NCBI RefSeq assembly: GCF_029937575.1
Contig: NZ_JAPYPS010000016.1
Coordinates: 3,706 to 67,705, forward strand
Direction: 5' to 3'
DNA: 64,000 bases
Origin: Nocardioides sp.
Lineage (GTDB): Bacteria > Actinomycetota > Actinomycetes > Propionibacteriales > Nocardioidaceae
The notes under the pieces were generated by a model, which saw nothing but the letters and a program-made list of their open reading frames with translations, was not told where the DNA came from and made no database searches. This document shows, piece by piece, positions 38,260 to 51,220 of this stretch (the first letter of the stretch is position 1; each line of letters begins with the position of its first letter). Both the position numbers and the translations under genes were made by a program.

Positions 38260-38465
38260 GACCGGTCCTCCTCGATCGCCAGCGCCATCGCTGGGCAGTA
38301 GGTGACGGCCGCAACGACCTGCGACCGGAGACTCTCGTCGGGGCTCTCGTCGAGGACGACGACGACGTCGGCCTCCTCGTCGAAGGCGAAGACGTCGGGC
38401 GCCTCGCCCTGGCACATCTGGTGGCCTTGGCAGATGTCGCGGTCCGCGACGACGTGCAGGCTCAC
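38256..38465 (-). CDS. Small single-cluster ferredoxin (3Fe-4S type)
   Basis: A 69-aa tail of ORF 38256..39359, starting at GTG 38465: VSLHVVADRDICQGHQMCQGEAPDVF...TYCPAMAL. There is a GTGA overlap with the CYP51 stop. Confidence 0.8.
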   Translation of the reverse strand: MSLHVVADRDICQGHQMCQGEAPDVFAFDEEADVVVVLDESPDESLRSQVVAAVTYCPAMALAIEEDRS

Positions 38466-39838
38466 TGCTGGCGCCGCACGTAGCGGGCCCGACACGGCCG
38501 CTGCAGCTGGATGACCATCTTGGAGTAGTCGTCGCGATAGGTCTCGCTGGGTTGGACGAGCTCGAACTCGAAGTCGCGCAGCAGCACCGAGAAGATCGCC
38601 TTGATCTGCATCATCGCGAAGGCATTGCCCACGCAGCGGTGCTTCCCGGCGCCGAACGGGATCCAGGTCCAGCGGTTCTGCAGGTCCTCCTGGCGTCCGT
38701 CGCGATACCGCGTCGGATCGAAGGACTGCGGCTCCGGGAAGTCCTCGGCGAGCCGGTTGGAGACCCGCGGCGACGACGCCACGATCGTGCCCGGGGGGAT
38801 CAGGTGACCGGCGAGCTCGATCTCCTCGACGACCTGGCGCATCAGGATGATCAGCGGCGGGTGCAGGCGCAGGGTCTCCTTGATCACCGACTCGAGCTGG
38901 GGGATCGAGCGCAGCGCCTGGAAGGAGATCTCCACGCGACCGTCGGGGCCGTCGGCGTACAGGTCGTCGAGCTCGGTGACCACCTCGGCCATCACGTCGG
39001 GGTGCCGCATCAGCTCGATCAGGCTCCACGCCGAGGTGCCGGACGAGGTGTGGTGGCCGGCGAAGAGCATCGAGATGAAGACGCCGGTGATGTAGTCGGC
39101 ACTCATGTCCAGCGAGATCAGCACGTCGAGCAGGTCGCGCTGGTCCTTGGGCACGGTGCCCCGCACCCGACGGCGGTCGATGATGTCCTGCACCAGCGCG
39201 ACCAGCGTCTCGCGCGAGCGGTCGCGGATCTCGAAGGACTCGACGCCCTCCATGTAGGGGTCGACGTAGGCGAGCGCGTCGGTGCCGCGCTCGAGCCCGT
39301 GGTAGGCCGCCGCGAAGCGGGCGTCGATCTCCTCGCGGAACGGCAGCCCGACCAGGCACGCGGCGGTGTTGTAGATCGTGAGCTCGGCGAAGAAGTCGAG
39401 CAGGTCGACCTCACCCTCGTCGCCCCAGTCGGCGACCATCCGGTTGATCTCGTTCTCGATGGTGGTGGCGTGCCCGCGCATCTGGTCGCCGCGCAGCGCC
39501 TGGTTCTTCAGGGCCTGCTGGCGCTCCTCCGGCGAGGCGTCGAAGACCACGCCGTGGCCGAAGATCGGCGTCATGAACGGGTAGGCCGCGGCCTGGTCGA
39601 GGGTCGACTCGGGCGCCTTGAAGAACTGCTCGTTGGCCTCCGCACCCGTCACCATGATCACCTCCTTGTCGGCGATCCGGAACCGGCCGATGGCGCCGCA
39701 CTCGGCGTACACGCGCTCGAGCAGGGCGACCGGGTCGGTGCGGAGCTCGGCGAGGTGCCCGTGGCCGTCCTCGTCGGGGACGGCGACGGAGACCTCGGGG
39801 ATGTCGGCGACTCCGAGCGTGCGGTCGGTGACGGTCAT
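38462..39838 (-). CDS. cyp51: Cytochrome P450 CYP51 (sterol 14-alpha-demethylase family)
   Basis: ATG 39838 (MTVTDRTLG). Motifs AYPFMTPIFGHGVVFDASPE, LDFFAELTIY, FAGHHTSSGT, LRLHPPLIILMR and the heme loop WIPFGAGKHRCVG. These are near-colinear with my recollection of M. tuberculosis Rv0764c. Confidence 0.9.
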   Translation of the reverse strand: MTVTDRTLGVADIPEVSVAVPDEDGHGHLAELRTDPVALLERVYAECGAIGRFRIADKEVIMVTGAEANEQFFKAPESTLDQAAAYPFMTPIFGHGVVFDASPEERQQALKNQALRGDQMRGHATTIENEINRMVADWGDEGEVDLLDFFAELTIYNTAACLVGLPFREEIDARFAAAYHGLERGTDALAYVDPYMEGVESFEIRDRSRETLVALVQDIIDRRRVRGTVPKDQRDLLDVLISLDMSADYITGVFISMLFAGHHTSSGTSAWSLIELMRHPDVMAEVVTELDDLYADGPDGRVEISFQALRSIPQLESVIKETLRLHPPLIILMRQVVEEIELAGHLIPPGTIVASSPRVSNRLAEDFPEPQSFDPTRYRDGRQEDLQNRWTWIPFGAGKHRCVGNAFAMMQIKAIFSVLLRDFEFELVQPSETYRDDYSKMVIQLQRPCRARYVRRQQ

Positions 39839-40620
39839 GCGGGGTCCTCCACGGGTGCTTCGGGTGAGACTTCGATGAGGTTGAGGTGGACGCCGCGCGG
39901 GGCGGCGACGACCATCGCGATCGCGTCGGCGATCGCTTGCGGCTTCATGAAGTGCGGGTGGCGGGCGAGGCCGAACCTCACCCAGGCGTTGAGCACCGTG
40001 GCCGCCTCGTCGGCGTCCCAGTCGGCGCCCATCTCGCTCCACGTCGGGCCGGGCCGCACGATCGAGGCCCGGACGCCGGAGCCCTCGAGCTCCATCTGCA
40101 GCGCGTGGGCCATCCCCTCCAGCCCCCACTTGCCGGCGGCGTACGACGACATGAACGGGCGGGCGCGTACCGCGACGTCGGAGGAGACGAAGACGACGTC
40201 CCCGCGACGACGCTCGATCATCGCCGGCACGAAGGCACGCACGAGGCGGTGCGCGCCGGTGATGTTGAGGTCCAGTTCGCGGGAGAACCGCTCGGAGTCG
40301 ACCTCGGCGATCAGCCCTGGCGCGACCGCGCCGGCGTTGGAGACGACGGTCTCGATGTCGCCCAGCGCCTCGGTGACCTCGACGGTGAACTGCTTGACCG
40401 AGTCGTCGTCGGTGATGTCGAGTGCGGCGACCGCGACCTCTCCCCCGGTCTCGCGGATCTGCGCGGCGACCTCCTCGAGCTTGTCGACGCGGCGAGCACC
40501 CAGCGCGACCGGGTAGCCGGCCGCAGCGAAGGTCAACGCCGTCGCGGCGCCGATCCCGGACGAGGCGCCGGTGATGACGGCCGGGCGTCGCTCAGGACGC
40601 TCGTACGTGGCTCTGCCCAT
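39835..40620 (-). CDS. SDR-family oxidoreductase
   Basis: VITGASSGIG, NAG, and YAAGKWG (YxxxK). Confidence 0.88.
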   Translation of the reverse strand: MGRATYERPERRPAVITGASSGIGAATALTFAAAGYPVALGARRVDKLEEVAAQIRETGGEVAVAALDITDDDSVKQFTVEVTEALGDIETVVSNAGAVAPGLIAEVDSERFSRELDLNITGAHRLVRAFVPAMIERRRGDVVFVSSDVAVRARPFMSSYAAGKWGLEGMAHALQMELEGSGVRASIVRPGPTWSEMGADWDADEAATVLNAWVRFGLARHPHFMKPQAIADAIAMVVAAPRGVHLNLIEVSPEAPVEDPA

Positions 40621-40623
40621 GCC

Positions 40624-41928
40624 TCAGCGCACCTCGATCGAGGGGACCGGGACCGAGGAGAATCCGCGCACGCTGACCGAGTGCACGCGCAGGCACTCGT
40701 CGTGGGCGACCTGGATCCGCTTCACCCGGGTGACCAGCTCGCGCAGCGCGATCCGCGCCTCGAGCCGCGCCAGGTTGGCACCGAGGCAGAAGTGCCGCCC
40801 CCCGCCGAAGCTGACCGACTGCGACAGCTCCTCCTTCGGCCTGTGGAGGTCGAACTCGTCGGCCCTGGTGAAGACGCGCTCGTCGCGGTTGGCCGAGCCG
40901 ATGCACAGCGCGAGCTTGGCGCCGGCCGGCGCGACGACACCCTCGACCTCGACGTCGGCCAGGAGGTGTCGGGCCAGCACCTGGCTGGAGGTGTCGAAGC
41001 GCAGGGTCTCCTCGATCCACGGGTCGACCAGGTCGAGACCCGACGCCAGCTCTGGTGCGGCGAAGACGTCGTCGTACTGGCTCGGGTGGCGGGTCAGGTG
41101 GAACAACGCGTGACCGAGCAGCTTGGTGGTCGTCTCGTTGCCGGCCACGACCATCAGGAAGAGGAACGCGATGATCTCGTCGTCCTCGAGCTTGTCGCCG
41201 TCGATCTCGGCGGCCAGCAGCGCCGAGGTGAGGTCGTCGGTCGGCTGCTTCTTGCGCGCGGCGACCATCTCGGCGTAGTAGACGACGAGGTCCAGCGACG
41301 CGGTCACGCCCGCCTCGGGTACGTCGTGCACGCCGTCCTCGCGGTGCACCACGACGTCGGCCAGGCGCCGCACCTCGTCCCGGTCGGCCTGCGGCACCCC
41401 CATCATCTCGGAGATGACGTCCATCGGGAGCAAGCCTGCGAAGTCCTTGATCCAGTCGAACCCCTGCCCACTCTCGGCGAGCTCGACGCAACGGGTGAGG
41501 TAGCGGTCGGTGAGGCGCTCGATCTGCGGCGCGAGCTCGGTGACCCGGCGCGGCGTGAAGCCCTTGGACACCAGCGAGCGCAGCCGCTTCTGCCGGTCAC
41601 CGTCCATCCCGAGGAACGACATCACCTTGTGGGCGTGCGGTCCCCAGGCACTGGGCTCGAGGGAGACCCCCATCGCGTTGGAGTAGACGCCCTCGGTGCG
41701 GAACGCCTGCTGCACGTCGGCGTGGCGAGTGAGGACCCAGAAGTCGTGGGTCGTGTTGTGGTGCAGGGGCTCCTCGGCGCGGCAGCGGGCGTAGACCGGG
41801 TAGGGGTCCTCCTGGAAGCCGTAGTCGAACGGGTCGAAGACGATCGGGCCAGATCCGGTCGGGCCAGATCCGGTCGGGCCGGGTCCGGTCGGGTCGCCGG
41901 CGTCGCGGCGGGTGTCGGTGGTCGTCAT
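40624..41928 (-). CDS. Cytochrome P450 (CYP123-like by sequence recollection and position)
   Basis: ATG 41928 (MTTTDTRRD). Motifs VVAGNETT, EETLRFD and the heme loop FGGGRHFCLGANLAR. The ORF-track extension to 42609 overlaps the TetR gene in another frame and was rejected. Confidence 0.88.
   Translation of the reverse strand: MTTTDTRRDAGDPTGPGPTGSGPTGSGPIVFDPFDYGFQEDPYPVYARCRAEEPLHHNTTHDFWVLTRHADVQQAFRTEGVYSNAMGVSLEPSAWGPHAHKVMSFLGMDGDRQKRLRSLVSKGFTPRRVTELAPQIERLTDRYLTRCVELAESGQGFDWIKDFAGLLPMDVISEMMGVPQADRDEVRRLADVVVHREDGVHDVPEAGVTASLDLVVYYAEMVAARKKQPTDDLTSALLAAEIDGDKLEDDEIIAFLFLMVVAGNETTTKLLGHALFHLTRHPSQYDDVFAAPELASGLDLVDPWIEETLRFDTSSQVLARHLLADVEVEGVVAPAGAKLALCIGSANRDERVFTRADEFDLHRPKEELSQSVSFGGGRHFCLGANLARLEARIALRELVTRVKRIQVAHDECLRVHSVSVRGFSSVPVPSIEVR
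41845..41889. repeat. In-frame 15-bp tandem repeat (CGGGCCAGATCCGGT x2 plus one variant) at the 5' end of the P450 gene
   Basis: Encodes the (GPTGS)-type N-terminal tract. Confidence 0.8.
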
Positions 41929-42542
41929 CAGACGTTGCCTCGCAGGATCGTGGCGACGACGGTGTCGAGCCGGTCGCCCATCTCGGTGTAGGTCAGCAGG
42001 CCCATGCCCGCCTGCAGCAGGGCGCCGGAGAAGGCCAGGGTCAGTGCCTCGACGAGCTCCTCGTCCCCATCCCCGTTCCCATCCCCGGCCTCGTCTCCGG
42101 TCTCGTCTCCGGCGAGGGCGTCGCTGAAGCGCCGCACGAACTCGGCGCCGATCCGCAGCCGCAGGCGCTCCACGTCGGGGTCCGAGCTGAGCAGCGCCGG
42201 CGTGACCGCGGCCGCCAGTTCGGGGGCGGCGGCCAGCCGCTGCGCCATCTGGCGGGTGACGCTGCGGACCCGGTCGACGGCGTCGGCGCCACTCGCCTCG
42301 TGCTCGGCGTCCTCGGCGAGGTAGCCGAGGAAGAGCTCGGCGAAGAGGTGGTTCTTCGAGGCCAGGTAGGTGTACGCGGTGGCGGGCGAGACCCCGGCGC
42401 GCGCGGCGACCGTGCGCACCGTGAGGGCCTCGTGGCCGACGGAGCGCAGCTCCTCGTCGCCGGCGACGAGGAGCTTGGTCAGCGTCTCCGCCTGCCGGGA
42501 CCGCAGGCCTTGCCGGGGACTTCTGAACACTTGACTGGACAC
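41928..42542 (-). CDS. TetR family transcriptional regulator (first gene of the P450/CYP51 string)
   Basis: HTH LTVRTVAARAGVSPATAYTYLASKNHLF. It starts at GTG 42542, and its stop shares 1 nt with the P450 ATG. Confidence 0.88.
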   Translation of the reverse strand: MSSQVFRSPRQGLRSRQAETLTKLLVAGDEELRSVGHEALTVRTVAARAGVSPATAYTYLASKNHLFAELFLGYLAEDAEHEASGADAVDRVRSVTRQMAQRLAAAPELAAAVTPALLSSDPDVERLRLRIGAEFVRRFSDALAGDETGDEAGDGNGDGDEELVEALTLAFSGALLQAGMGLLTYTEMGDRLDTVVATILRGNV

Positions 42543-42550
42543 GTGTCCAG
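42535..42550. promoter_or_regulatory. Perfect 16-bp palindrome CTGGACACGTGTCCAG overlapping the TetR start codon
   Basis: Read directly. It lies 2 nt from the KstR-type box. Confidence 0.5.
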
Positions 42551-42552
42551 AC

Positions 42553-42566
42553 TAGAACGAGTTCTC
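42553..42566. promoter_or_regulatory. KstR-type operator (TAGAACGAGTTCTC)
   Basis: One arm mismatch relative to TAGAAC-NN-GTTCTA. It lies 10 nt upstream of the TetR GTG 42542. Confidence 0.55.
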
Positions 42567-42755
42567 GGGCGCGCGCAAGGTCTCGCGTCGGGAGAGCCCG
42601 CTGAGTCACCGCCGAGCCCGTAGCGCGAGCACCCGCGCCAGGAATCGCGTGACCGGCAGCTCTCGCACCTGGCTCACGGACGCCTCACAGGAAGGGGACA
42701 TCCCCGAGGCCCACAGTCGGGGCACCGACGTACCCGACCTGACCAGGAGCCACCG

Positions 42756-44000
42756 ATGTCGACATCCAGCATCCCGACCCCTACCGCCGGACCGTCGCGC
42801 CCGCCGCGACGCCGTCACCTCCGCCGCGTGGCTGCTGCCGTCGGCGCAGCAGCGCTGACCGCGCCGTTCGTGCTCGGTGTCGGCGCGCTCGGGGCGTCCG
42901 CGGTCGGCCCCGCGTCCGCCGGCGCGTCGCTGACGGCCACCCCCGGCATCGTGCAGGCCGCCGACCGGGGCGGCTACGGACCCTTCGGCGGCTACGCGTA
43001 CGGCGGGGCCTCCGGCTACGCGTACGGGTACGGCGGCGGACAGGGCGACTCAGGCCTCTCCGGCCTGCCCGGAGGGACCACCAGCACCTCCCTGGACACC
43101 AGCGACGCGACGGAGGAGCAGTCGGTCGGCCTCGCCCTGATCACCAGCACGCTCGACTACGGGGCAGGCGAGGCAGCCGGCACCGGCATGGTGATCGACG
43201 CCGACGGTCTCGTGGTCACCAACCACCACGTCGTCGCGGACGCGACCTCGCTCGAGGTCACCATCGCCGAGACCGGCGAGACCTTCGAGGCGACGTACGT
43301 CGGCGGAGACGCCACCCGCGACGTGGCGGTCCTCCGACTGACCGGCGCCACCGAGCTCACCCCGGTGGACCTCGACCCGACCGGCGTCGCAGAGGGTGAC
43401 GTCGTCACCTCGATCGGGGATGCCGGCGGCGACGGCGGTTCGCTGACCGCGGCCAGCGGCACCGTGACCGACGCCCGGACCGGGATCGAGGTGAGCAACG
43501 ACGACGGGTCGACGTCGCGGTTGCGCGCGTTGATCGAGGTCGATGCCGACATCGTCCCCGGCGACTCCGGCGGCGCTCTGCTCGACGCGGATGGTGAGGT
43601 CGCCGGGATGAATGTCGCGGCGTCGGGCGGCGGCACCGACATCACGGGCTACGCCATCCCGATCACCCGGGTCCTGAGGATCACCGAGGCGATCATCGAC
43701 GGGGACACCAGCAACGGAGTCGTCCTCGGCTACGAGGCGTTCCTCGGCGTAGAGCTGTCCGGAGCTGGCACGTCACCCGTGCTGGCCGGGGTGCTCGACG
43801 GCACCGCCGCGGCCACGGCAGGACTCGCTGCCGGCGACACGGTCACCGCCGTGGGCGACATCACCGTGACCACCGCCGACGAGCTCTCGTCCGCGATCGC
43901 CACGCACGCGGCCGGCGAGACGGTCAGCATCGCCTGGACCGACTCCGACGGCGCCGACCACGAGGCCGAAGCGACCCTCGGGGCCGCCCCCATCGCCTGA
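42756..44000 (+). CDS. Secreted trypsin-like (S1C/HtrA-like) serine protease with a C-terminal PDZ domain
   Basis: VVTNHHV (His), RDVAVLRL (Asp) and GDSGGAL (Ser). PDZ-like region GVLDGTAAATAGLAAGDTVTAVGD. The N-terminal linker is Gly/Tyr-rich. Confidence 0.88.
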   Translation: MSTSSIPTPTAGPSRPPRRRHLRRVAAAVGAAALTAPFVLGVGALGASAVGPASAGASLTATPGIVQAADRGGYGPFGGYAYGGASGYAYGYGGGQGDSGLSGLPGGTTSTSLDTSDATEEQSVGLALITSTLDYGAGEAAGTGMVIDADGLVVTNHHVVADATSLEVTIAETGETFEATYVGGDATRDVAVLRLTGATELTPVDLDPTGVAEGDVVTSIGDAGGDGGSLTAASGTVTDARTGIEVSNDDGSTSRLRALIEVDADIVPGDSGGALLDADGEVAGMNVAASGGGTDITGYAIPITRVLRITEAIIDGDTSNGVVLGYEAFLGVELSGAGTSPVLAGVLDGTAAATAGLAAGDTVTAVGDITVTTADELSSAIATHAAGETVSIAWTDSDGADHEAEATLGAAPIA

Positions 44001-44002
44001 CG

Positions 44003-44030
44003 GGGGACAGGCCGGACCCCCGGTCTCCCC
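44003..44030 (+). terminator. Possible tail-less intrinsic terminator after the protease gene
   Basis: A GC-rich stem of about 11 bp with a 2-nt bulge, starting 3 nt after the stop. There is no U-tract. Confidence 0.3.
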
Positions 44031-44106
44031 TGACACCGCCCCGGCGCACAGGCACCCCACAGATCCGCCACACGGCCCGGCCAGTCGGGTCGGGCTGACT
44101 AGGGCG

Positions 44107-44150
44107 TGTCACCCCACGTTCACCCCGCGTCCGTCCCCACGTCACCGGCC
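44107..44150 (+). promoter_or_regulatory. PHO-box-like array: four 11-nt direct repeat units (TGTCACCCCAC GTTCACCCCGC GTCCGTCCCCA CGTCACCGGCC)
   Basis: The TCACC cores at 44109, 44120 and 44142 are spaced by 11 and 22 nt. The array lies 41-84 nt upstream of ATG 44191. Confidence 0.45.
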
Positions 44151-44190
44151 GCACCGGCCGGGCGGACGCATCAGACCAAGGAGCATGTTC

Positions 44191-44793
44191 ATGCAGCAGT
44201 ACTGGATGCTCGGCGCCGACCTCGTCGCGATCGCCGTGCTCGTCGGAGCCCTCTTCCTGCCCCGGCACGATCGTCGCGAGCTCGTCGTCGCCTACCTGGG
44301 CGTCAACATCGGCGTGCTGGCCGTGACCGCGACGCTGGCGACCAGCACCGTCGGCGCGGGCCTCGGCCTCGGCCTGTTCGGCGTCCTGTCGATCATCCGG
44401 CTTCGCTCCCAGGAGCTCGAGCACCACGAGATCGCCTACTACTTCGCCGCCCTGGCGATCGGCCTGCTCTGCGGTCTGGCCACCACCCCGACGTGGCTGC
44501 ACGGCGTGCTGCTGGTCGGCGTCCTGGCCGCGATCTGGGTCGGGGACCACCCGCGGATCGCCGAGACCGCGCAGCGCCAGGAGCTGGTGCTCGACCGCGC
44601 CTTCACCTGCGGGCCGGCCCTGACCGCCCACCTCGAGCACACGCTGGACGCCCACGTGCTCTCGGCCACCGTGCGTCGGACCGACCTGGTCAACGACACC
44701 ACCCTCGTCCAGGTGCGCTACCGAGCGACCACCGCCCCGCCTGCCGCCGACCCCACCCAGCCGGCCGTGCTGCGCACGAGTGGTGTGGCATGA
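44191..44793 (+). CDS. DUF4956-type integral membrane protein
   Basis: ORF 44185..44793. AAGGAG at 44178-44183 favours ATG 44191. It has several TM segments, then a soluble tail. Confidence 0.75.
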   Translation: MQQYWMLGADLVAIAVLVGALFLPRHDRRELVVAYLGVNIGVLAVTATLATSTVGAGLGLGLFGVLSIIRLRSQELEHHEIAYYFAALAIGLLCGLATTPTWLHGVLLVGVLAAIWVGDHPRIAETAQRQELVLDRAFTCGPALTAHLEHTLDAHVLSATVRRTDLVNDTTLVQVRYRATTAPPAADPTQPAVLRTSGVA

Positions 44794-45671
44794 GCGTGGC
44801 CACCCTCGACCCCGAGCCCGCCCACGCGGTCGCCGAGACGCTGCGCCGACTCACTCCCGTCGGACTGGACGAGCTGGTCGACCGCGCAGCCCTTCTCACC
44901 CGCGTCGACCGCAAGTACGTCGTGGCGGTGCAGGACCTGCCCGCCCTGCTCGAGTACCTCCCGGACGACACCCACGTGCTCGAGATCGGCGATGCCCGCG
45001 CCTTCGGCTACCGCTCGACCTACCTCGACACCCCGGACCGGGCCAGCTACCTGCTCGCCGGTCGGCGCCACCGCCGCCGCTTCAAGGTGCGCACCCGCGC
45101 CTATCTCGACACCGACACCTGTTGGTTGGAGGTCAAGACGCGGTCGGCACGCGATGCCACCGTGAAGCAGCGGATCACCCACCACGACGCCGGTGACGGA
45201 CCGCTCACCACCGAGGGTCTCGCGTTCGTCGACGCGTGCCTCGAGGAGGCCCGGGTGGAGGCCGCCTGCGCCGCTGATCTCGCACCGGTCCTCGTGACGG
45301 CCTACCGTCGCGCCACCCTGCTCCTGCCGAGCTCCGGCAGCCGCGTCACCATCGACACCGATCTCGGCTGGACCTCGCTCACCTCCACGCCACGCGACCT
45401 CGATCGACCCGCACTGGCGATCGTCGAGACCAAGACCGGCTCGACACCCTCTGCGGTCGACCGGCTGCTGTGGTCGCGCGGGCACCGGCCCGTCCAGGTC
45501 TCCAAGTACGGCGTGGGCATGGCCGCTCTCGATCCCGTCCTCCCGCGCCTGAAGTGGCACCGGGTCCTCGACCGCCGGCTGCACGTGCCCCGCCGGCACG
45601 CATCCCACCCACACGCACCCGCATCCGCATCCGCCAGCTCACCGACGCCTCCGAGAAGGAGCCCACGATGA
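44790..45671 (+). CDS. VTC-domain (polyphosphate-polymerase-domain) protein
   Basis: ATG 44790 overlaps the upstream stop (ATGA). RVDRKYVV, STYLDTPD, RRRFKVRTRAY, WLEVKTR and IVETKTGS are the basic tunnel-type beta-strand signatures I associate with VTC/CYTH-like domains. Confidence 0.7.
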   Translation: MSVATLDPEPAHAVAETLRRLTPVGLDELVDRAALLTRVDRKYVVAVQDLPALLEYLPDDTHVLEIGDARAFGYRSTYLDTPDRASYLLAGRRHRRRFKVRTRAYLDTDTCWLEVKTRSARDATVKQRITHHDAGDGPLTTEGLAFVDACLEEARVEAACAADLAPVLVTAYRRATLLLPSSGSRVTIDTDLGWTSLTSTPRDLDRPALAIVETKTGSTPSAVDRLLWSRGHRPVQVSKYGVGMAALDPVLPRLKWHRVLDRRLHVPRRHASHPHAPASASASSPTPPRRSPR

Positions 45672-47497
45672 ATCTCCGCCACACCCTCCGCACGAGCCTC
45701 GCCGCAGGTGCCGCGGTCGCCCTCCTGGTCGGCTGCGGCAGCACTGCCCCGGCCGGCACCTCCGCGGCCTCCACCGGCACCTCCGGCAGCACCACGTCGC
45801 TGGTCGCGGGCACCGCCGGCATCACCGCCACCGAGGCCCTGGCTGCCAACGAGGAGGCGCACACCGCAGACGACCCCGGCGCATACGGCGATGGCGACAC
45901 CGACACCGGCACGGGGACGACCATCACGCTGGACGACGCGGAGTCGGCCGTCGACGGTGACGGCGCCTCGGTCGAGGGGGACGTCGTGACCATCTCGACG
46001 GCGGGCACCTACGTCATCTCCGGCACCCTGACCGACGGCCAGCTGGTCGTCGACAGCACCGACGACGGCACGGTCGAGCTCGTGCTCGACGGCGTCGACA
46101 TCACCTCGACTGACGACTCGCCGCTGCTCGTCACCGAGGCCGACGAGGCCGTGGTGGTGCTCGCCGACGGCTCGGTCAACCGCCTGGCCGACGGCGCGGC
46201 CTCCACCGCCGACGACGACGAGGAGGACGCCGCGAACGCCACCCTCTTCTCCACCGCCGATCTGACCATCGCCGGCACCGGCGCGCTGGAGGTCGAGGGC
46301 AACGCCGACGGGATCACCAGCAAGGACGGCCTCGTCGTGCTCGGGGGCGAGATCACCATCAGCGCCGCCGACGATGGTCTCCGCGGCAAGGACTACCTGG
46401 TGGTCGAAGGGGGCACCCTCACCGTCGAGGCCGGAGGCGACGGGCTGAAGTCGGACAACGACAGCGACGAGGCCGACGGCTTCGTGGCCGTCACCGGAGG
46501 CTCGGTCACGGTCGAGGCCGCCGACGACGGGCTCGCCGCCACCACGGACGCCATCGTGGGGGGCGGCAGCCTGTCCATCACCGCCGGGGACGGCTCCGCC
46601 TCCGGCACCTCCTCTGCCACCACGGACGACACGACCAGCAAGGGCATCCAGGCCGGGGCCAGCATCGTCGTCTCCGGGGGCGAGGTCACCGTGGATGCCT
46701 CCGACGACGCGATCAACTCCGACAGCGTGGTCTCGGTCGACGGCGGCACCCTCGTCCTCGCCTCCGGTGACGACGCCATGCACGCGGACGGCGACCTGAC
46801 CGTGGCCGGTGGCAGCATCACGGTCACGACCTCCTACGAGGCTCTCGAGGCGGGCACCATGACCATCTCCGACGGCATCCTCGACGTGACCTCGAGCGAT
46901 GACGGCATCAACGTGGTCAACGACGCCGGCGACGCCTCGCTCCTCATCGAGGGAGGCAGTGTGCTCGTGCACGCCGGCGGCGACGGGATCGACGTGGGGG
47001 GAGACGGCAGCATCACCGGCGGCGACGTCGTCGTCGAGGGCCCCACCCAGCCGGGCAACGGCGCGCTCGACCTCGACGGCGCCCTGCTGACCGAGGGCGG
47101 CACCCTCGTGGCTGTCGGCACGTCCGGCATGGCGTCGGCCCCGTCGACGGAGTCGTCACAGGCCTGGGTGTCGGCCACGCTCACCAGCACCGTCCCGACC
47201 GGGTCGGTCATCACCGTCACCGACAGCGACGGCACCCTGGTGACCGAGTACGAGGTGGGCGAGGAGATCTCGTCGTTCGTCTACTCGGGCCCGGAGATCG
47301 AGGACGGCGACTCGTACTACCTCCTGGTCGATGGCGTCGAGACGGCCACCGTCACCGCCGGCGAGGGCCCCACGGGCGGCATGGGGGGCATGGGCGGGGG
47401 CCCCGGTGGCGGGGGCCCCGGTGGCGGGGGCCCCGGTGGCGGGGGCCCCGGTGGCGGGGGCACCCCTCCCGACGGGTTCCCGGACGTCGCGTCCTGA
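45668..47497 (+). CDS. Acidic secreted lipoprotein, DUF4353/carbohydrate-binding-domain-type beta-helix-like repeats with a Gly-rich tail
   Basis: ATG 45668 overlaps the VTC stop (ATGA), with GAGAAGGAG upstream. Lipobox LLVGCGS. Repeated DDG(L/I) motifs at about 20-30-aa intervals, and a C-terminal (GGPGG)x4 tract. Confidence 0.75.
   Translation: MNLRHTLRTSLAAGAAVALLVGCGSTAPAGTSAASTGTSGSTTSLVAGTAGITATEALAANEEAHTADDPGAYGDGDTDTGTGTTITLDDAESAVDGDGASVEGDVVTISTAGTYVISGTLTDGQLVVDSTDDGTVELVLDGVDITSTDDSPLLVTEADEAVVVLADGSVNRLADGAASTADDDEEDAANATLFSTADLTIAGTGALEVEGNADGITSKDGLVVLGGEITISAADDGLRGKDYLVVEGGTLTVEAGGDGLKSDNDSDEADGFVAVTGGSVTVEAADDGLAATTDAIVGGGSLSITAGDGSASGTSSATTDDTTSKGIQAGASIVVSGGEVTVDASDDAINSDSVVSVDGGTLVLASGDDAMHADGDLTVAGGSITVTTSYEALEAGTMTISDGILDVTSSDDGINVVNDAGDASLLIEGGSVLVHAGGDGIDVGGDGSITGGDVVVEGPTQPGNGALDLDGALLTEGGTLVAVGTSGMASAPSTESSQAWVSATLTSTVPTGSVITVTDSDGTLVTEYEVGEEISSFVYSGPEIEDGDSYYLLVDGVETATVTAGEGPTGGMGGMGGGPGGGGPGGGGPGGGGPGGGGTPPDGFPDVAS
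47399..47458. repeat. In-frame 15-bp tandem repeat (GGCCCCGGTGGCGGG x4) at the 3' end of the lipoprotein gene
   Basis: Encodes (GPGGG)x4. Confidence 0.85.
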
Positions 47498-47502
47498 GGG
47501 GC

Positions 47503-48024
47503 TCAGCGCCGGAGGTAGGCCAGCTCGTCGAGCTCCGGGGCGGGCGTGGCGTAGATCTCGAGCCAGTCCAGCGCCCCGATCGGGCCCTCCAGCCCGACGT
47601 ACGGCAGACCCACGGCACGTTCGACCCGGCCCAGCAGCACGGCATCGGGACAGGCCACGGCGAGGTCGTCCTCGAAGCCGACGAAGCACAGCGACACCGT
47701 CCCGTCGGGCACGCCGGGCACCACGAAGTCGACCCGACGCGACACCGGACCGTCGTCCTCGACGGCCGTCAGACCGGCCACCGACAGTCCCGGGACGGCC
47801 CCGTCGGCCGGCAGGTAGCCGAGCCACGAGTCGTCGTCCGCGACGGTGCGATAGCTGTCGGAGACGCCGGCGTTCCCGGAGTTGCCGGCAACGCCGTCGT
47901 ACACCGCCAGCGCGACGAGCAGGCCCACGACCACCAGCAGCACCGGCCCCACCCGGCGCGCCAGCGCCCGCGCCCGCTCACCGCCGAAGGGCGGGCGTGC
48001 GGGTCGCGGGCTGCGGTGGTTCAC
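47503..48024 (-). CDS. Hypothetical membrane-anchored protein
   Basis: GTG 48024 overlaps the FadD17-like stop (GTGA). TM segment VGPVLLVVVGLLVALAVY. Confidence 0.5.
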   Translation of the reverse strand: MNHRSPRPARPPFGGERARALARRVGPVLLVVVGLLVALAVYDGVAGNSGNAGVSDSYRTVADDDSWLGYLPADGAVPGLSVAGLTAVEDDGPVSRRVDFVVPGVPDGTVSLCFVGFEDDLAVACPDAVLLGRVERAVGLPYVGLEGPIGALDWLEIYATPAPELDELAYLRR

Positions 48025-49613
48025 GTCAAGGCCAGACTCGGACCGTACGACGTGCCACGCGGCTGGCGCGACCAGAGGACGCCGTCGCCGGGCGTGATGC
48101 CCTCGGCGATGAGGGTGCGCTTGAGCACCTTGTTGGTCGCGGTGCTGGGCAGGGACGGCGCCAGCCGGACGAAGCGCGGCCACGCCTTGGGCGACAGGTC
48201 GGGCTGGGCGGCGAGGAACTCCTCGAGCTCGTCGGGCTCGAGGGTGGAGTCGTCGTTGAGCACGATGGCGGCCATCACCTGGTCACCCACGTCGTCGGGC
48301 ACGGCGTACACCGCCACCTGGTTGATCGCGTCCAGGCGGGTCAGGATCCGCTCGATCGGCGCGGCGGCGAGGTTCTCCCCGTCGACGCGCATCCAGTCGG
48401 CGGTGCGCCCGGCCAGGTAGATCCAGTCGTCGGCGTCCTTGTAGGCCAGGTCGCCAGACCAGTACATCCCGTGACGCATCCGGTCCTCGTTGGCCTTCGG
48501 GTCGTTGTAGTACCCCTGGAAGTAGCCGCCGCCCGTGGTGTTGACCAGCTCGCCGACGGCCTGGTCGGCGTTGGTCAGGGCACCGTGCTCGTCGAACTGC
48601 GCGACCGCGCACTCGGTGACGCTCGCGCTGTCGTAGATCGCGACGCCGTCCATCCCCTTGCCGATCGAGCCCGGCGGGCACCCGTCCTCGCGCAGGATGA
48701 TGATCGCCAGCTCGGTCGAGCCGAAGCCGTCCACCACCGAGCAACCGAAGCGACGGGCGAACTCGTCGATGTTGCGGTCGCCGGCCTCGTTGCCGAACGC
48801 GGTGCGCAGGGGGTTGTCGGCGTCGTCGGGCTGCTCGGGCGTCGCGAGCACGTAGGCCAACGGCTTGCCGACGTAGTTCATGTAGGTCACGCCATGGGTT
48901 CGTACGTCGTCGAGGAACCGGCTCGCGGAGAACTTCGTCGGCACCATGGCCGCCCCGGACCCGACCGCGACCGCCCAGCCGGCCACCACCGCGTTGGAGT
49001 GGAACAGCGGCATCGACAGGTAGCAGACGTCGTCGCTGGTCATCGAGAACCGGTCGACCAGGTTGAGGCCGGAGAAGAGCACCATCAGGTGGGCGACCTG
49101 CACGGCCTTGGGGTCACCGCTGGTGCCGGAGGTGAAGATCATCATGAAGGTGTCCATCGCCTCGACCTCGCGGTGCGGCGTCAGCGGTCCGGCCCCGGCG
49201 ATGAGCTCGGCCCACTCCCCGGTGGACGTGTCGAGCACCCGTACGTCGCCGAGGTCGAGGCCCTCGAGCAGCGGGTGATGCTCGTTGTCGGTGACCAGCA
49301 CCTGGCACTCCGAGCGACGGATGTCGGCGACCAGCCCGTCCCCACGCCGGGTGGTGTTGATGCCACACAGGGTGAACCCACCGAGCCCGGCCGCCGCCAT
49401 CATCCGCAGCATGTCCGGGCTGTTGCCGAGCAGCGTGCCCACGTGCACCGGCCGCTGGGCGTCCGCGATCCCGATCAGGGCGGCTGCGACCTGCGAGCTC
49501 TCCGAGATGTGCTCACGCCAGGTCTGCGACCGGCCGTCGTGGAGGATCGCGGTGCTGTCGTCCTCGGCGCGCTCGCGCAGCAGCTGCTGGACCGTCCCTG
49601 CCGTCGAGGCCAT
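48021..49613 (-). CDS. AMP-dependent acyl-CoA synthetase, FadD17-like
   Basis: MIFTSGTSGDPKAV, CYLSMPLFHSNAV, YVGKPLAYVLATPEQPDDADNPLR, GFGSTE and WMRVDGENL. The start shares 1 nt with the upstream stop. Confidence 0.88.
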   Translation of the reverse strand: MASTAGTVQQLLRERAEDDSTAILHDGRSQTWREHISESSQVAAALIGIADAQRPVHVGTLLGNSPDMLRMMAAAGLGGFTLCGINTTRRGDGLVADIRRSECQVLVTDNEHHPLLEGLDLGDVRVLDTSTGEWAELIAGAGPLTPHREVEAMDTFMMIFTSGTSGDPKAVQVAHLMVLFSGLNLVDRFSMTSDDVCYLSMPLFHSNAVVAGWAVAVGSGAAMVPTKFSASRFLDDVRTHGVTYMNYVGKPLAYVLATPEQPDDADNPLRTAFGNEAGDRNIDEFARRFGCSVVDGFGSTELAIIILREDGCPPGSIGKGMDGVAIYDSASVTECAVAQFDEHGALTNADQAVGELVNTTGGGYFQGYYNDPKANEDRMRHGMYWSGDLAYKDADDWIYLAGRTADWMRVDGENLAAAPIERILTRLDAINQVAVYAVPDDVGDQVMAAIVLNDDSTLEPDELEEFLAAQPDLSPKAWPRFVRLAPSLPSTATNKVLKRTLIAEGITPGDGVLWSRQPRGTSYGPSLALT

Positions 49614-50500
49614 CAGGCCACGCTCCCGGCGGTGGTGCCGACGCCGGCGGTGAGGCCGATCCGGTCGGCCAGCCGGTCGAGGGAGGCCATCACCTCGTCA
49701 TCGGACTTGTCCGGTACCCCCCAGATCAGGTCGGTGGCACCTGCCTCCGCCCAGCCGGCGAGGTCCTCGGGCGACGGCTTCGAGGCGATCAGCACGTGGA
49801 TCTGCGGCTCACCGTCGCGACCGGCCTCGGCCCAGGCCGTGCGCAGCGCAGCACACTTCGCGCTGATGTCCTGCTCGATCGGCGTCGTCATCCACCCGTC
49901 GGCGTGAGCGGCGATCCAGGCGAACGTCTTGGGCCCGGCCCCGGCCCCGATCACCAGCGGGATGTGCGGCTGCACCGGCTTGGGGTAGGCCCACGAGGGT
50001 CCGAACGAGACGAACTCCCCGTCGTAGGAGGCCTCCTCGTCGGTCCACAGCGAGCGCATCGCCTCGACGTACTCCTTCAGGACCGTACGGCGCCTGCCTG
50101 GCGGCACGTGGTGGTCCTCGAGCTCGTCGGTGTTCCAGCCGAAGCCTGCCCCGATGGTCACCCGCCCGCCGGAGAGGTGGTCGAGGGTGGCGATCTGCTT
50201 GGCCAGCGTGATCGGGTCCGACTCCACGGGCAGCGCCACCGCCGTCGAGAGCCGGATCCGCGAGGTCACCGCGGCTGCTGTCGCCAGCGAGATCCACGGG
50301 TCGAGAGTGCGGGTGTAGCGGTCGTCGGGCAGCGACTCACCCCCCGTCGGGTGCGCGGCGTCGCGCCGCACCGGGATGTGCGTGTGCTCCGGCACGTAGA
50401 TCGTGTCGAAACCACGTTGCTCCCCAGCAAGGGCGAGCGCGGCAGGGGTGATCCCCCGGTCGGACGAGAACAGGACGAGGCCGTTGCGCATGAACGGCAT
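49613..50500 (-). CDS. LLM-class F420-dependent oxidoreductase
   Basis: YVPEHTHIP, LDHLSGGRV, GAGFGWN and SLWTDEEASY. The start is ATG 50500 or ATG 50491. A KstR-type box abuts the start. Confidence 0.82.
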   Translation of the reverse strand: MPFMRNGLVLFSSDRGITPAALALAGEQRGFDTIYVPEHTHIPVRRDAAHPTGGESLPDDRYTRTLDPWISLATAAAVTSRIRLSTAVALPVESDPITLAKQIATLDHLSGGRVTIGAGFGWNTDELEDHHVPPGRRRTVLKEYVEAMRSLWTDEEASYDGEFVSFGPSWAYPKPVQPHIPLVIGAGAGPKTFAWIAAHADGWMTTPIEQDISAKCAALRTAWAEAGRDGEPQIHVLIASKPSPEDLAGWAEAGATDLIWGVPDKSDDEVMASLDRLADRIGLTAGVGTTAGSVA

Positions 50501-50514
50501 TAGAACGTGTTCTA
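50501..50514. promoter_or_regulatory. KstR-type operator (TAGAACGTGTTCTA)
   Basis: Perfect arms. It directly abuts ATG 50500 of the LLM/FadD17-like operon. Confidence 0.65.
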
Positions 50515-50581
50515 GTTCACTTCGTCCAGGAAATGGCTCAGAAGGATGCCTCCGACGTGCCGCGCGGCCCTGGCGTCGCGC

Positions 50582-51151
50582 TCAGCCGTCGACGAGGGCC
50601 TGGATGGAGCGACCGTAGAGATCGACCAGCTGCTCGACGGAGGCCTCGACGATCAGCCGATCAGCCAGGATCGCCACGGCGTCGAGCAGCCCGGAGATGG
50701 CCGCCGCGACCAGTCGTGCCCGCAGCTCGGGGTCGGGCCCCGACAGCCGAGGCGCGAGGGGCTCGATGAACATCTCCTCCATCGCGGCGATCAGGCGGGA
50801 CCGCACCAGGTCGCTGTCGGTCGCACGCAGCATCGCCCGCCACGTGCTGAAGGTGAGCTCGGGCGCCTCGGTCAGCAACGACTCCACCAGCCGCGCGCCG
50901 AGCGACTCCAGGGGACCGCTGGTCACGTGGTCGAAGCGCCCCTCGATGGCGACCGTCTCCAGGAACAGCCGCTCCTTGGAGCCGAAGTGCCGGATGACCA
51001 GCGCCGGGTCCGCACCCGCCTCGGCCGCGATCGCCCGCACCGACGTGGCGGCGTACCCCTGCCGCGCGAAGAGCCGACGCGCCGCCGTGCCGATCGCCTC
51101 CTTCGTGAGCGCACCCGACCCGCTGCGGGAGCTGGCGGCGGCCTCGGTCAC
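50582..51151 (-). CDS. TetR family transcriptional regulator
   Basis: HTH TSVRAIAAEAGADPALVIRHFGSKERLF. I prefer GTG 51151 over the ORF-track start at 51193. Confidence 0.82.
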   Translation of the reverse strand: MTEAAASSRSGSGALTKEAIGTAARRLFARQGYAATSVRAIAAEAGADPALVIRHFGSKERLFLETVAIEGRFDHVTSGPLESLGARLVESLLTEAPELTFSTWRAMLRATDSDLVRSRLIAAMEEMFIEPLAPRLSGPDPELRARLVAAAISGLLDAVAILADRLIVEASVEQLVDLYGRSIQALVDG

Positions 51152-51220
51152 GCGGCCGACCCTATGCGGTGGGCCGTGTGAGCGTTGACACACGGCGGAG
51201 GCGGTTCGTACAGTCCGCTT

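Follow-up and report, generated by a model that had tools for sequence, protein, structure and literature searches.

Bacteria are generally credited with making polyphosphate through PPK1 and PPK2. In eukaryotes, the VTC complex couples polyphosphate synthesis to membrane transit (yeast VTC cryo-electron microscopy study). Related gene sets, made up of cotH, a polyphosphate polymerase gene and a DUF4956 gene, have been described beside the pel operons of Gram-positive bacteria, Bifidobacteria included (Whitfield et al., bioRxiv 10.1101/768473), and one cotH/VTC/DUF4956 set, SIR_1592-1594 of Streptococcus intermedius, was studied by deletion (mBio 2025, PMC12345266). Here we analysed a locus of this kind in a 64,000-nucleotide stretch of a Nocardioides sp. 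contig (NZ_JAPYPS010000016.1), hereafter the window, in which three genes at 44191-47497 encode a DUF4956 membrane protein (g1), a VTC-domain protein (g2) and an acidic lipoprotein (g3). In the reading that we favour, the operon encodes a VTC-type bacterial polymerase that makes polyphosphate at the cytoplasmic membrane, with its product used outside; taken as a whole chain, this is plausible, though we would place it somewhat short of an even chance. Its parts differ in strength, as the assignment of g2 as a polyphosphate polymerase is well supported by sequence and by the predicted model, while the translocase and extracytoplasmic roles would follow from gene context and analogy. An earlier note, made from the letters of the stretch, had proposed a split polyphosphate synthase-translocase; the polymerase half of that proposal stood (domain, fold and residues agree), whereas the translocase half met with a DUF4956 protein that shows no detectable similarity to the VTC channel.

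A three-gene operon and its conservation among actinobacteria

The window has a base composition of about 71% G+C, and its closest relatives are Nocardioides and other Nocardioidaceae. The operon comprises the following features:

44191..44793, + strand: g1, DUF4956 membrane protein, 200 amino acids (Pfam PF16316)
44790..45671, + strand: g2, soluble VTC-domain protein, 293 amino acids (Pfam PF09359)
45668..47497, + strand: g3, acidic Cthe_2159 protein, predicted lipoprotein, 609 amino acids (Pfam PF14262)
45654..45660, + strand: GAAGGAG, ribosome-binding site for g3 within the 3' end of g2, 7 nucleotides (nt) 5' of the ATG at 45668 (from sequence)

Start and stop codons of consecutive genes overlap as ATGA, exactly at 44790-44793 between g1 and g2 and at 45668-45671 between g2 and g3, just as the earlier note had placed them. 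The G+C content at third codon positions (GC3) is 0.87-0.94 in the three frames compared to 0.71-0.75 in the long antisense open reading frames (ORFs), and because it is higher on the plus strand, the genes of that strand are taken to be the real ones. For g1, the start at 44191 is a better choice than the alternative first ATG at 44185; a GGAG at 44180-44183 lies 7 nt 5' of it, close homologues begin with MQQY in agreement with this start, and on a near-identical contig the gene was independently called with a product of 200 amino acids. NCBIfam held no model for g1, g2 or g3, neither canonical sigma-70 promoters nor intrinsic terminators were found across 42500-48300, and an Rfam search of the leader returned no relevant RNA element. 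The three genes make up one operon, a clean and typical example of an already annotated gene family.

Conservation was assessed in 80 actinobacterial loci, obtained from a scan with one genome per species and including Nocardioides, Kineococcus, Cellulomonas, Micromonosporaceae, Actinomyces, and Acidimicrobiales. The co-occurrence analysis suggested earlier for the trio speaks clearly for the pair, as DUF4956 lies directly upstream of VTC in 79/80 loci (the exception ends at a contig edge) and a 4-nt overlap of the VTC start with the DUF4956 stop is available in 74 of these 79. A gene for an exported partner adjoins the pair in 76/80 loci, namely Cthe_2159 in 58 and a secreted CotH kinase in 18, and neither of the two is present in the other four, two of which are truncated. 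The g2-g3 junction is a 4-nt overlap in 22/56 loci and falls within 20 nt in 40/56, and no other family occurs in more than 12 of the 80 flanks. The conserved unit is a tightly coupled DUF4956-VTC pair, with translational coupling in nearly all genomes examined, together with an interchangeable exported partner of carbohydrate-binding type; of the trio that had first been taken as a unit, the pair is conserved, but the third member may be either Cthe_2159 or CotH.

The CotH-type loci belong mainly to Micromonosporaceae, plus a few other genera, and their CotH proteins carry CHB_HEX_C and CBM2 modules. Their neighbours are GH53 and CE15 glucuronyl esterase-CBM2 genes (plant-cell-wall enzymes) as well as sugar ABC transporters. 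In addition, 7-11 loci carry genes for a NAGPA-type phosphodiester glycosidase and for a GT2-GtrA glycosyltransferase no more than about 3 kb away from the module; in loci of the Nocardioides type they come directly after Cthe_2159, in those of the Cellulomonas type their place is upstream, and their proximity hints at a link to phosphodiester-containing envelope glycopolymers. No NAGPA or GT2 genes adjoin the operon in the window, and no CotH-like sequence occurs anywhere in its 64 kb (tblastn, E 1e-6). The loci concerned are:

L036, L043, L051, L052, L054-L058, L060, L063-L065, L068, L069, L077: CotH-type loci, about 10.7-13 kb in each
L007 (12272-14612), also L009, L012, L014, L033, L046, L049, L050, L066, L074: loci with NAGPA and GT2-GtrA

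Two species depart from the single-copy arrangement. In Actinomyces bowdenii (L042, 7240-12701), two DUF4956-VTC pairs stand in tandem before a single Cthe_2159 gene, and in Kineococcus rubinsiae the module occurs at two separate places (L013 and L027).

The VTC-domain protein and its two partners

The middle gene had been read as a VTC-domain protein without a transmembrane (TM) segment, and both points were borne out. g2 matches the Pfam VTC family over profile positions 2-234 of 235 (E 9.6e-27, 94.5 bits, cut-off 23), has an isoelectric point (pI) of 9.6, and contains no 19-residue window with a Kyte-Doolittle value of 1.6 or more, so that no TM segment is present. Residues 248-293 form a variable, low-complexity tail. 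The VTC domain is the only one present, with no SPX match in Pfam at E ≤ 10 and no CYTH family reported by Pfam for this protein. An AlphaFold2 (AF2) model built from 22 homologues reached a predicted local distance difference test score (pLDDT) of 89.9, and the 13 best matches retrieved with it from the PDB by Foldseek were all tunnel domains of VTC subunits, mostly Vtc4 but also Vtc3 and Vtc2. The top ones were the Vtc4 structures 3g3r and 8i6v (best E 9.6e-13, template modelling score 0.54), while YgiF and the CYTH/ThTPase hydrolases ranked below Vtc4, with E from 2.6e-9 to 1e-5.

The residues that handle triphosphate and Mn2+ in Vtc4 are K200, R264, R266, K281, Y359, R361, E426, S457, and K458, of which K458 is the sole one replaced (by Ile or Leu) in the inactive Vtc2 and Vtc3 (yeast VTC cryo-electron microscopy study). 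In a profile alignment, the first four correspond to K42, R101, R103, and K116 of g2 and the last five to Y172, R174, E213, S238, and K239, and all nine g2 residues, K239 included, are invariant in the 22 aligned homologues. Judged by sequence and model together, g2 belongs to the VTC family and retains an intact active site of the polymerase type. At E ≤ 1e-3 the family counts 5651 cluster representatives, and at E ≤ 1e-30 it still counts 1380. Fusions were surveyed in the 150 best of the 5651 representatives, with distant phyla unsampled; all 150 are 216-485 amino acids long, no CotH-VTC fusion was found among them, and five of the longer ones (343-485 amino acids, the two longest included) contain VTC only.

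The polytopic DUF4956 protein that the earlier note had seen coupled to the VTC gene was recovered as such. g1 matches Pfam DUF4956 over the entire profile (positions 1-169 of 169, E 2.7e-56, 190.3 bits, cut-off 30.6), has no other significant Pfam match, and contains several hydrophobic windows and five predicted TM helices. The AF2 model consists of five TM helices followed by a C-terminal beta-alpha-beta-beta ACT-like domain, with a pLDDT of 78.8 overall and of about 94 for the C-terminal domain. Two conserved, strongly basic loops (PRHxRRE after TM1 and RLRSxEL after TM3) lead, by the positive-inside rule, to a predicted cytoplasmic location of the C-terminal domain, which could be the meeting point with g2. 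An invariant glycine-rich motif, AGLGLGLFGVLSIIRLRS, is located in TM3. Compared by sequence with solved structures, g1 gave nothing better than E 0.8, and in the fold search none of the 50 matches listed reached E < 0.03, with no VTC chain among them; the C-terminal domain weakly resembles ACT domains and the membrane part resembles no solved structure. g1 is a different kind of membrane partner from the 3-TM channel subunits of eukaryotic VTC.

DUF4956 was also considered as a relative of MgtC and rejected at the sequence level, given that there is no match to Pfam MgtC (PF02308) at E ≤ 10 and that an hhalign profile comparison with the MgtC-family protein YhiD of E. coli yielded a probability of 0.2%. 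The published MgtC-like reading of the TM part of DUF4956 is not supported by these comparisons for this protein.

The description of the third product as a very acidic lipoprotein with a lipobox, DDG repeats and a Gly-rich tail also proved accurate. The N-terminus of g3, MNLRHTLRTSLAAGAAVALLVGCGS, has a signal peptide with R4 and R8, a hydrophobic AAGAAVALLVG and then the lipobox LVGC with Cys23 (codon 45734-45736), and with this signal peptide and a lipobox of the pattern [LVI][ASTVI][GAS]C, g3 is a predicted lipoprotein. It contains 102 Asp and Glu against 8 Lys and Arg residues (pI 4.05), about a dozen beta-helix-like GGxhThxh coil units, four DDG motifs within these regular coil units, and three copies of [AS][AS]DDG[LI]. 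A search for DUF4353, one of the checks proposed beforehand, leads to Pfam Cthe_2159 (PF14262), which we take to be the family known by that name; g3 matches it in two stretches (E 1.5e-87, 293.6 bits, cut-off 25.8). Residues 74-308 align to the solved beta-helix of Cthe_2159 (PDB 4peu/4phb, E 3.5e-36), and the tail consists of four PGGGG units at residues 579-598. The layout of g3 is as follows:

Domain order, N- to C-terminus: signal peptide with lipobox, Thr/Ser/Gly linker, Cthe_2159 beta-helix, C-terminal beta domain, Gly-rich tail
45974-46777, + strand: Cthe_2159 beta-helix, best Pfam stretch (amino acids 103-370), continuing to about amino acid 480
47393..47461, + strand: perfect 15-nt tandem repeat of 4.6 copies encoding (PGGGG)4 (Tandem Repeats Finder, 100% matches)

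A 98%-identical metagenomic orthologue (L081) is 10 residues shorter, which equals two repeat units, so the length of the tail varies between strains. Among 41 clustered orthologues, a lipobox could be recognised in about 30, and most match g3 in acidity and carry a 'TAGE' motif followed by a G/M/P-rich tail.

Upstream repeats, candidate regulation, and neighbouring genes

The region upstream of g1 and of the gene preceding it contains several short elements, together with one further gene:

44047..44073, + strand: three 11-nt-phased direct repeats, CACAG at 44047, CACAG at 44058 and CACAC at 44069 (from sequence)
44095..44103, + strand: conserved -10-like element CTGACTAGG, recurring at the equivalent position in other loci
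44107..44150, + strand: four PHO-box-like 11-nt units, TGTCACCCCAC GTTCACCCCGC GTCCGTCCCCA CGTCACCGGCC, in the presumed leader (GTCACC/GTTCACC core)
42675..42727, + strand: CACAG-type 11-nt-phased repeats (42675/42686 and 42712/42723) upstream of the HtrA-like gene (motif scan)
42756..44000, + strand: HtrA-like serine protease (Trypsin_2 and PDZ; Pfam, NCBIfam) with an N-terminal hydrophobic segment

With at most one mismatch, CACAG-N6-CACAG is found in 50 of 78 loci on the upstream side of the DUF4956 start, 39-145 nt (mostly 60-121 nt) away from it; its density there is 4.6 per kb, versus 0.023 per kb in the rest of the same loci, an approximately 200-fold difference. The published site of Mycobacterium tuberculosis PhoP is TCACAGC-n4-TCACAGC (PDB 5ED4), and 44047-44073 is a candidate binding site for an OmpR-family response regulator of this PhoP-like type. 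An OmpR-family two-component system is encoded near the module in about 9 loci. For instance, the adjacent response regulator in L015 is closest to M. tuberculosis PhoP (E 3.6e-60), ahead of PrrA, MtrA, and RegX3, and regulators 50-58% identical adjoin the module in L018, L021, L035, and L061. Direct repeats of this (T/G)CACAG form also precede the adjacent PhoP-like response regulator genes in L018, L021, and L035, and in L061 they precede a set of cotH, response regulator and histidine kinase genes; repeats before regulator genes are the pattern that an autoregulated system would show. The Micromonosporaceae loci are without CACAG repeats and have another conserved upstream sequence (…TCGATGTAACCTGG…GTTTACCCACCGGCCACCGGATG…).

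The 64-kb window holds six matches to the CACAG motif, four of which are at two promoters, those of g1 and of the HtrA-like gene. An HtrA homologue is found directly upstream of the module in L018 (N. deserti), where the order is response regulator/histidine kinase, HtrA, DUF4956, VTC, Cthe_2159, with repeats before each unit; elsewhere, homologues occur within L012 and L016. The protease gene is possibly co-regulated with the operon but lies outside its conserved core. At the position of the -10-like element, other loci have GGCGTACTGG or GGCTGAATGG, from which we infer a promoter function for CTGACTAGG.

The PHO-box-like units are the sole match to [GT]TCAC[CA]-N5-[GT]TCA[CT][CA] on both strands of the window, and they sit between the -10-like element and the ribosome-binding site, that is, downstream of the -10-like box. 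GTTCACC, the core of the Streptomyces PHO box consensus quoted in PMC9019756, is 19-fold enriched in the region scanned, from -75 to -10, where it lies mostly between -29 and -50, but it is present in only 14 of 78 loci. The comparative evidence for control by an envelope-type two-component system resembling M. tuberculosis PhoP is good, and that for direct phosphate control through the PHO-box-like element is modest. The CACAG signal shared with the HtrA-like gene points away from the Pho regulon and towards a two-component system of the envelope type. Of the phosphate control considered possible in the earlier note, one PHO-box-like element with its modest support is retained, but the dominant conserved signal is the TCACAG repeat of the M. 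tuberculosis PhoP type.

A convergent ORF downstream of the operon was considered as a fourth member and rejected, as Pfam gave no match for it and none of the 80 loci contains a homologue; the gene is specific to the lineage.

47503-48183, - strand: convergent ORF, 226 amino acids from its first start, ending 5 nt past g3, with one hydrophobic segment

On a near-identical contig, the same ORF is called as 47503-48024 (173 amino acids). Further upstream (38462-42609) are P450 genes, a short-chain dehydrogenase/reductase (SDR) gene and a TetR regulator, i.e., ordinary actinobacterial metabolism, and downstream (48021-51193) are an acyl-CoA synthetase, a gene that by eye resembles a luciferase-like oxidoreductase, a TetR-like gene and a solute-binding lipoprotein-like gene. 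Pfam supports only the P450, TetR, and AMP-binding enzyme assignments among them. These surrounding metabolic genes are unrelated to the module.

Possible function and relation to known systems

In the polymerase-at-the-membrane reading, g1 and g2 would form a stoichiometric complex at the inner face of the cytoplasmic membrane, in which g2 would polymerise polyphosphate from ATP or another nucleoside triphosphate (NTP) with Mn2+/Mg2+, similarly to Vtc4. The DUF4956 subunit, probably oligomeric, would anchor the polymerase and most likely pass the polymer, or phosphoryl groups, to the outer face of the membrane, and the acidic, probably Ca2+-binding beta-helix lipoprotein would handle the product outside, with a secreted CotH kinase in its place in other lineages. 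Expression would probably be driven by a regulator like M. tuberculosis PhoP acting on the CACAG repeats, together with the HtrA-like gene, and a second input might come from the PHO-box-like element, the whole being an envelope-related response. The export step is proposed because the compartment of the partner is invariant despite the change of family, and because coupled synthesis and transit have a precedent in eukaryotes. A more far-reaching idea, and an unlikely one as it stands, is that DUF4956 and VTC constitute a polyphosphate synthase-exporter which evolved independently of the eukaryotic VTC channel and brings polyphosphate to the outer face of the membrane for use in an envelope response under a PhoP-type two-component system. 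In that case, the polymer could donate phosphoryl groups to the secreted CotH kinases, it could pair with the acidic Cthe_2159 beta-helix through Ca2+/Mg2+ bridges on the wall or on pectic/cellulosic substrates, or it could act as an extracytoplasmic chaperone alongside HtrA.

Several points weigh against the polymerase-and-export reading. As the earlier note had supposed, no experimental function for any bacterial member was found in the literature searched, and single deletions of the CotH, VTC-like, and DUF4956 genes in S. intermedius gave no clear phenotype (PMC12345266). In g2, the segment corresponding to E426, S457, and K458 aligns weakly by sequence (1.2 bits), the pairing of these residues being drawn solely from motif similarity (ETK / SK[YF]xxG) and the fold match. 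No natural DUF4956-VTC fusion was found among the 150 best of the 5651 representatives. Between DUF4956 and the VTC channel subunits, or any transporter or channel of solved structure, no similarity was detected, so that the translocation step is built on gene context and analogy. An acidic g3 would repel polyphosphate unless the two were bridged by divalent cations. Finally, the window encodes no two-component system, the regulator being deduced from other genomes.

The alternative that survives best, although somewhat unlikely in our view, is that polyphosphate stays in the cytoplasm and DUF4956 only tethers g2 or regulates it allosterically through the ACT-like domain, similarly to MgtC, with the exported third protein co-transcribed as part of the same stress response without touching the polymer. 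Such a view is taken in the S. intermedius paper (mBio 2025, PMC12345266) and preprint, in which DUF4956 is read as an MgtC-like TM part plus an ACT domain and polyphosphate is suggested to remain cytoplasmic, and it gains from the architecture of five TM helices and an ACT-like domain confirmed here, as well as from the lack of channel-like homology in DUF4956. It is harder to reconcile with an exported partner at 76/80 loci, whose family changes but whose compartment never does, with the probability of 0.2% against YhiD and no Pfam MgtC match at E ≤ 10, and with the observation that in yeast, synthesis uncoupled from transit is considered harmful.

The interchange of CotH (with CBM2 and CHB_HEX_C) and Cthe_2159 downstream of the pair can also be read as a sign of an envelope phospho-modification machine. 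Here, the pair would supply a phosphoryl donor (polyphosphate or a polyphosphate-primed carrier) to extracellular enzymes, CotH kinases or, in some genomes, NAGPA/GT2-GtrA would phosphorylate wall or substrate polysaccharides or surface proteins with it, and Cthe_2159 would be a polysaccharide-binding scaffold. NAGPA and GT2-GtrA genes after Cthe_2159 in 7-11 loci are compatible with this, and extracellular kinases would have no obvious source of ATP. However, no CotH, NAGPA, or GT2 gene stands beside the operon in the window, and polyphosphate use is known for no CotH enzyme. The proposal refines the polymerase-and-export reading and overlaps it rather than being independent of it, and we regard it as improbable in its own right.

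Decidedly improbable is the option that g2 is not a polymerase but a triphosphatase, an NTP-processing or a signalling tunnel enzyme like YgiF, CYTH, or ThTPase, in which case g2, together with g1, would serve an envelope-stress regulon as a sensor or effector linked to the membrane. Enzymes with the triphosphate tunnel fold have diverse functions, YgiF and CYTH proteins are likewise significant fold matches of g2 (E 2.6e-9 to 1e-5), and the operon adjoins an HtrA-like protease gene with upstream repeats common to both. Set against this are the end-to-end Pfam VTC match with no CYTH family reported, the ranking of Vtc4 structures above all hydrolases, and the invariance of the Lys that marks an active polymerase as opposed to Vtc2/Vtc3. 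That the genes are mis-called or lie together by chance in a high-GC genome, for which the long spurious ORFs on the opposite strand could be cited, is already refuted by the GC3 of 0.87-0.94 in the plus-strand frames, the strong Pfam matches of all three genes and an order conserved in 79/80 genomes.

Under the polymerase-at-the-membrane reading, a VTC-type family with thousands of bacterial representatives may bear on both the synthesis and the export of polyphosphate. If active, it would provide a third bacterial route to the polymer as well as a candidate route for its export, and, if true, the reading would give a rationale for the secreted CotH kinases and for the Cthe_2159 family.

With regard to known systems, the MgtC family (Salmonella MgtC, E. 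coli YhiD) is similar to the g1 model in overall architecture, which in MgtC comprises about five TM helices and a C-terminal ACT-like domain, but no sequence relationship to g1 was detected (YhiD, Pfam). In core sequence and in 11-bp phase, the upstream repeats agree with the sites of the M. tuberculosis PhoPR regulon, yet the window itself lacks such a regulator. Cthe_2159 of Clostridium thermocellum, said to have been found by Close and colleagues in 2014 to bind cellulose, pectin, and Ca2+, has beta-helix coil repeats in common with g3. In contrast to that protein (PDB 4PEU/4PHB), g3 is about twice as long, is predicted to be lipid-anchored, and additionally has a beta domain towards its C-terminus and a conserved tail rich in Gly.

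The pel-associated modules have the same pair of VTC-domain and DUF4956 proteins with an exported partner, which is CotH there and Cthe_2159 in the window. The three-gene set was reported as not found outside pel loci (mBio 2025, PMC12345266), and among papers on CotH and polyphosphate in the literature searched, only the Pel ones were relevant. No pel family is among the families conserved in the 80 flanks, pel genes not having been searched for directly, and the actinobacterial loci, including the CotH-type ones beside GH53 and glucuronyl esterase genes, appear to place the set outside pel loci.

A further close system is eukaryotic VTC (yeast Vtc4/Vtc3/Vtc1; PDB 3G3Q/3G3R, 7YTJ, 8I6V), whose catalytic domain is homologous to g2 and whose polymerase is likewise associated with a polytopic membrane protein, as in the pairing of g1 and g2. 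The differences are that eukaryotic VTC has an SPX domain, which g2 does not; that its catalytic domain is fused to TM helices, whereas g2 is a separate soluble protein; and that its 3-TM subunits build a pentameric channel, whereas g1 has five TM helices and an ACT-like domain with no detectable relation to them. Eukaryotic VTC also has no counterpart of the exported lipoprotein or kinase partner, and the operon has no Vtc1-like subunit. The VTC family thus includes g2, but the three-gene system taken together falls outside the eukaryotic VTC complex. The pairing of VTC and DUF4956 was already visible in databases and papers; in the operon, a VTC-family protein is combined with a membrane partner not homologous to that of eukaryotes and with an extracytoplasmic one.

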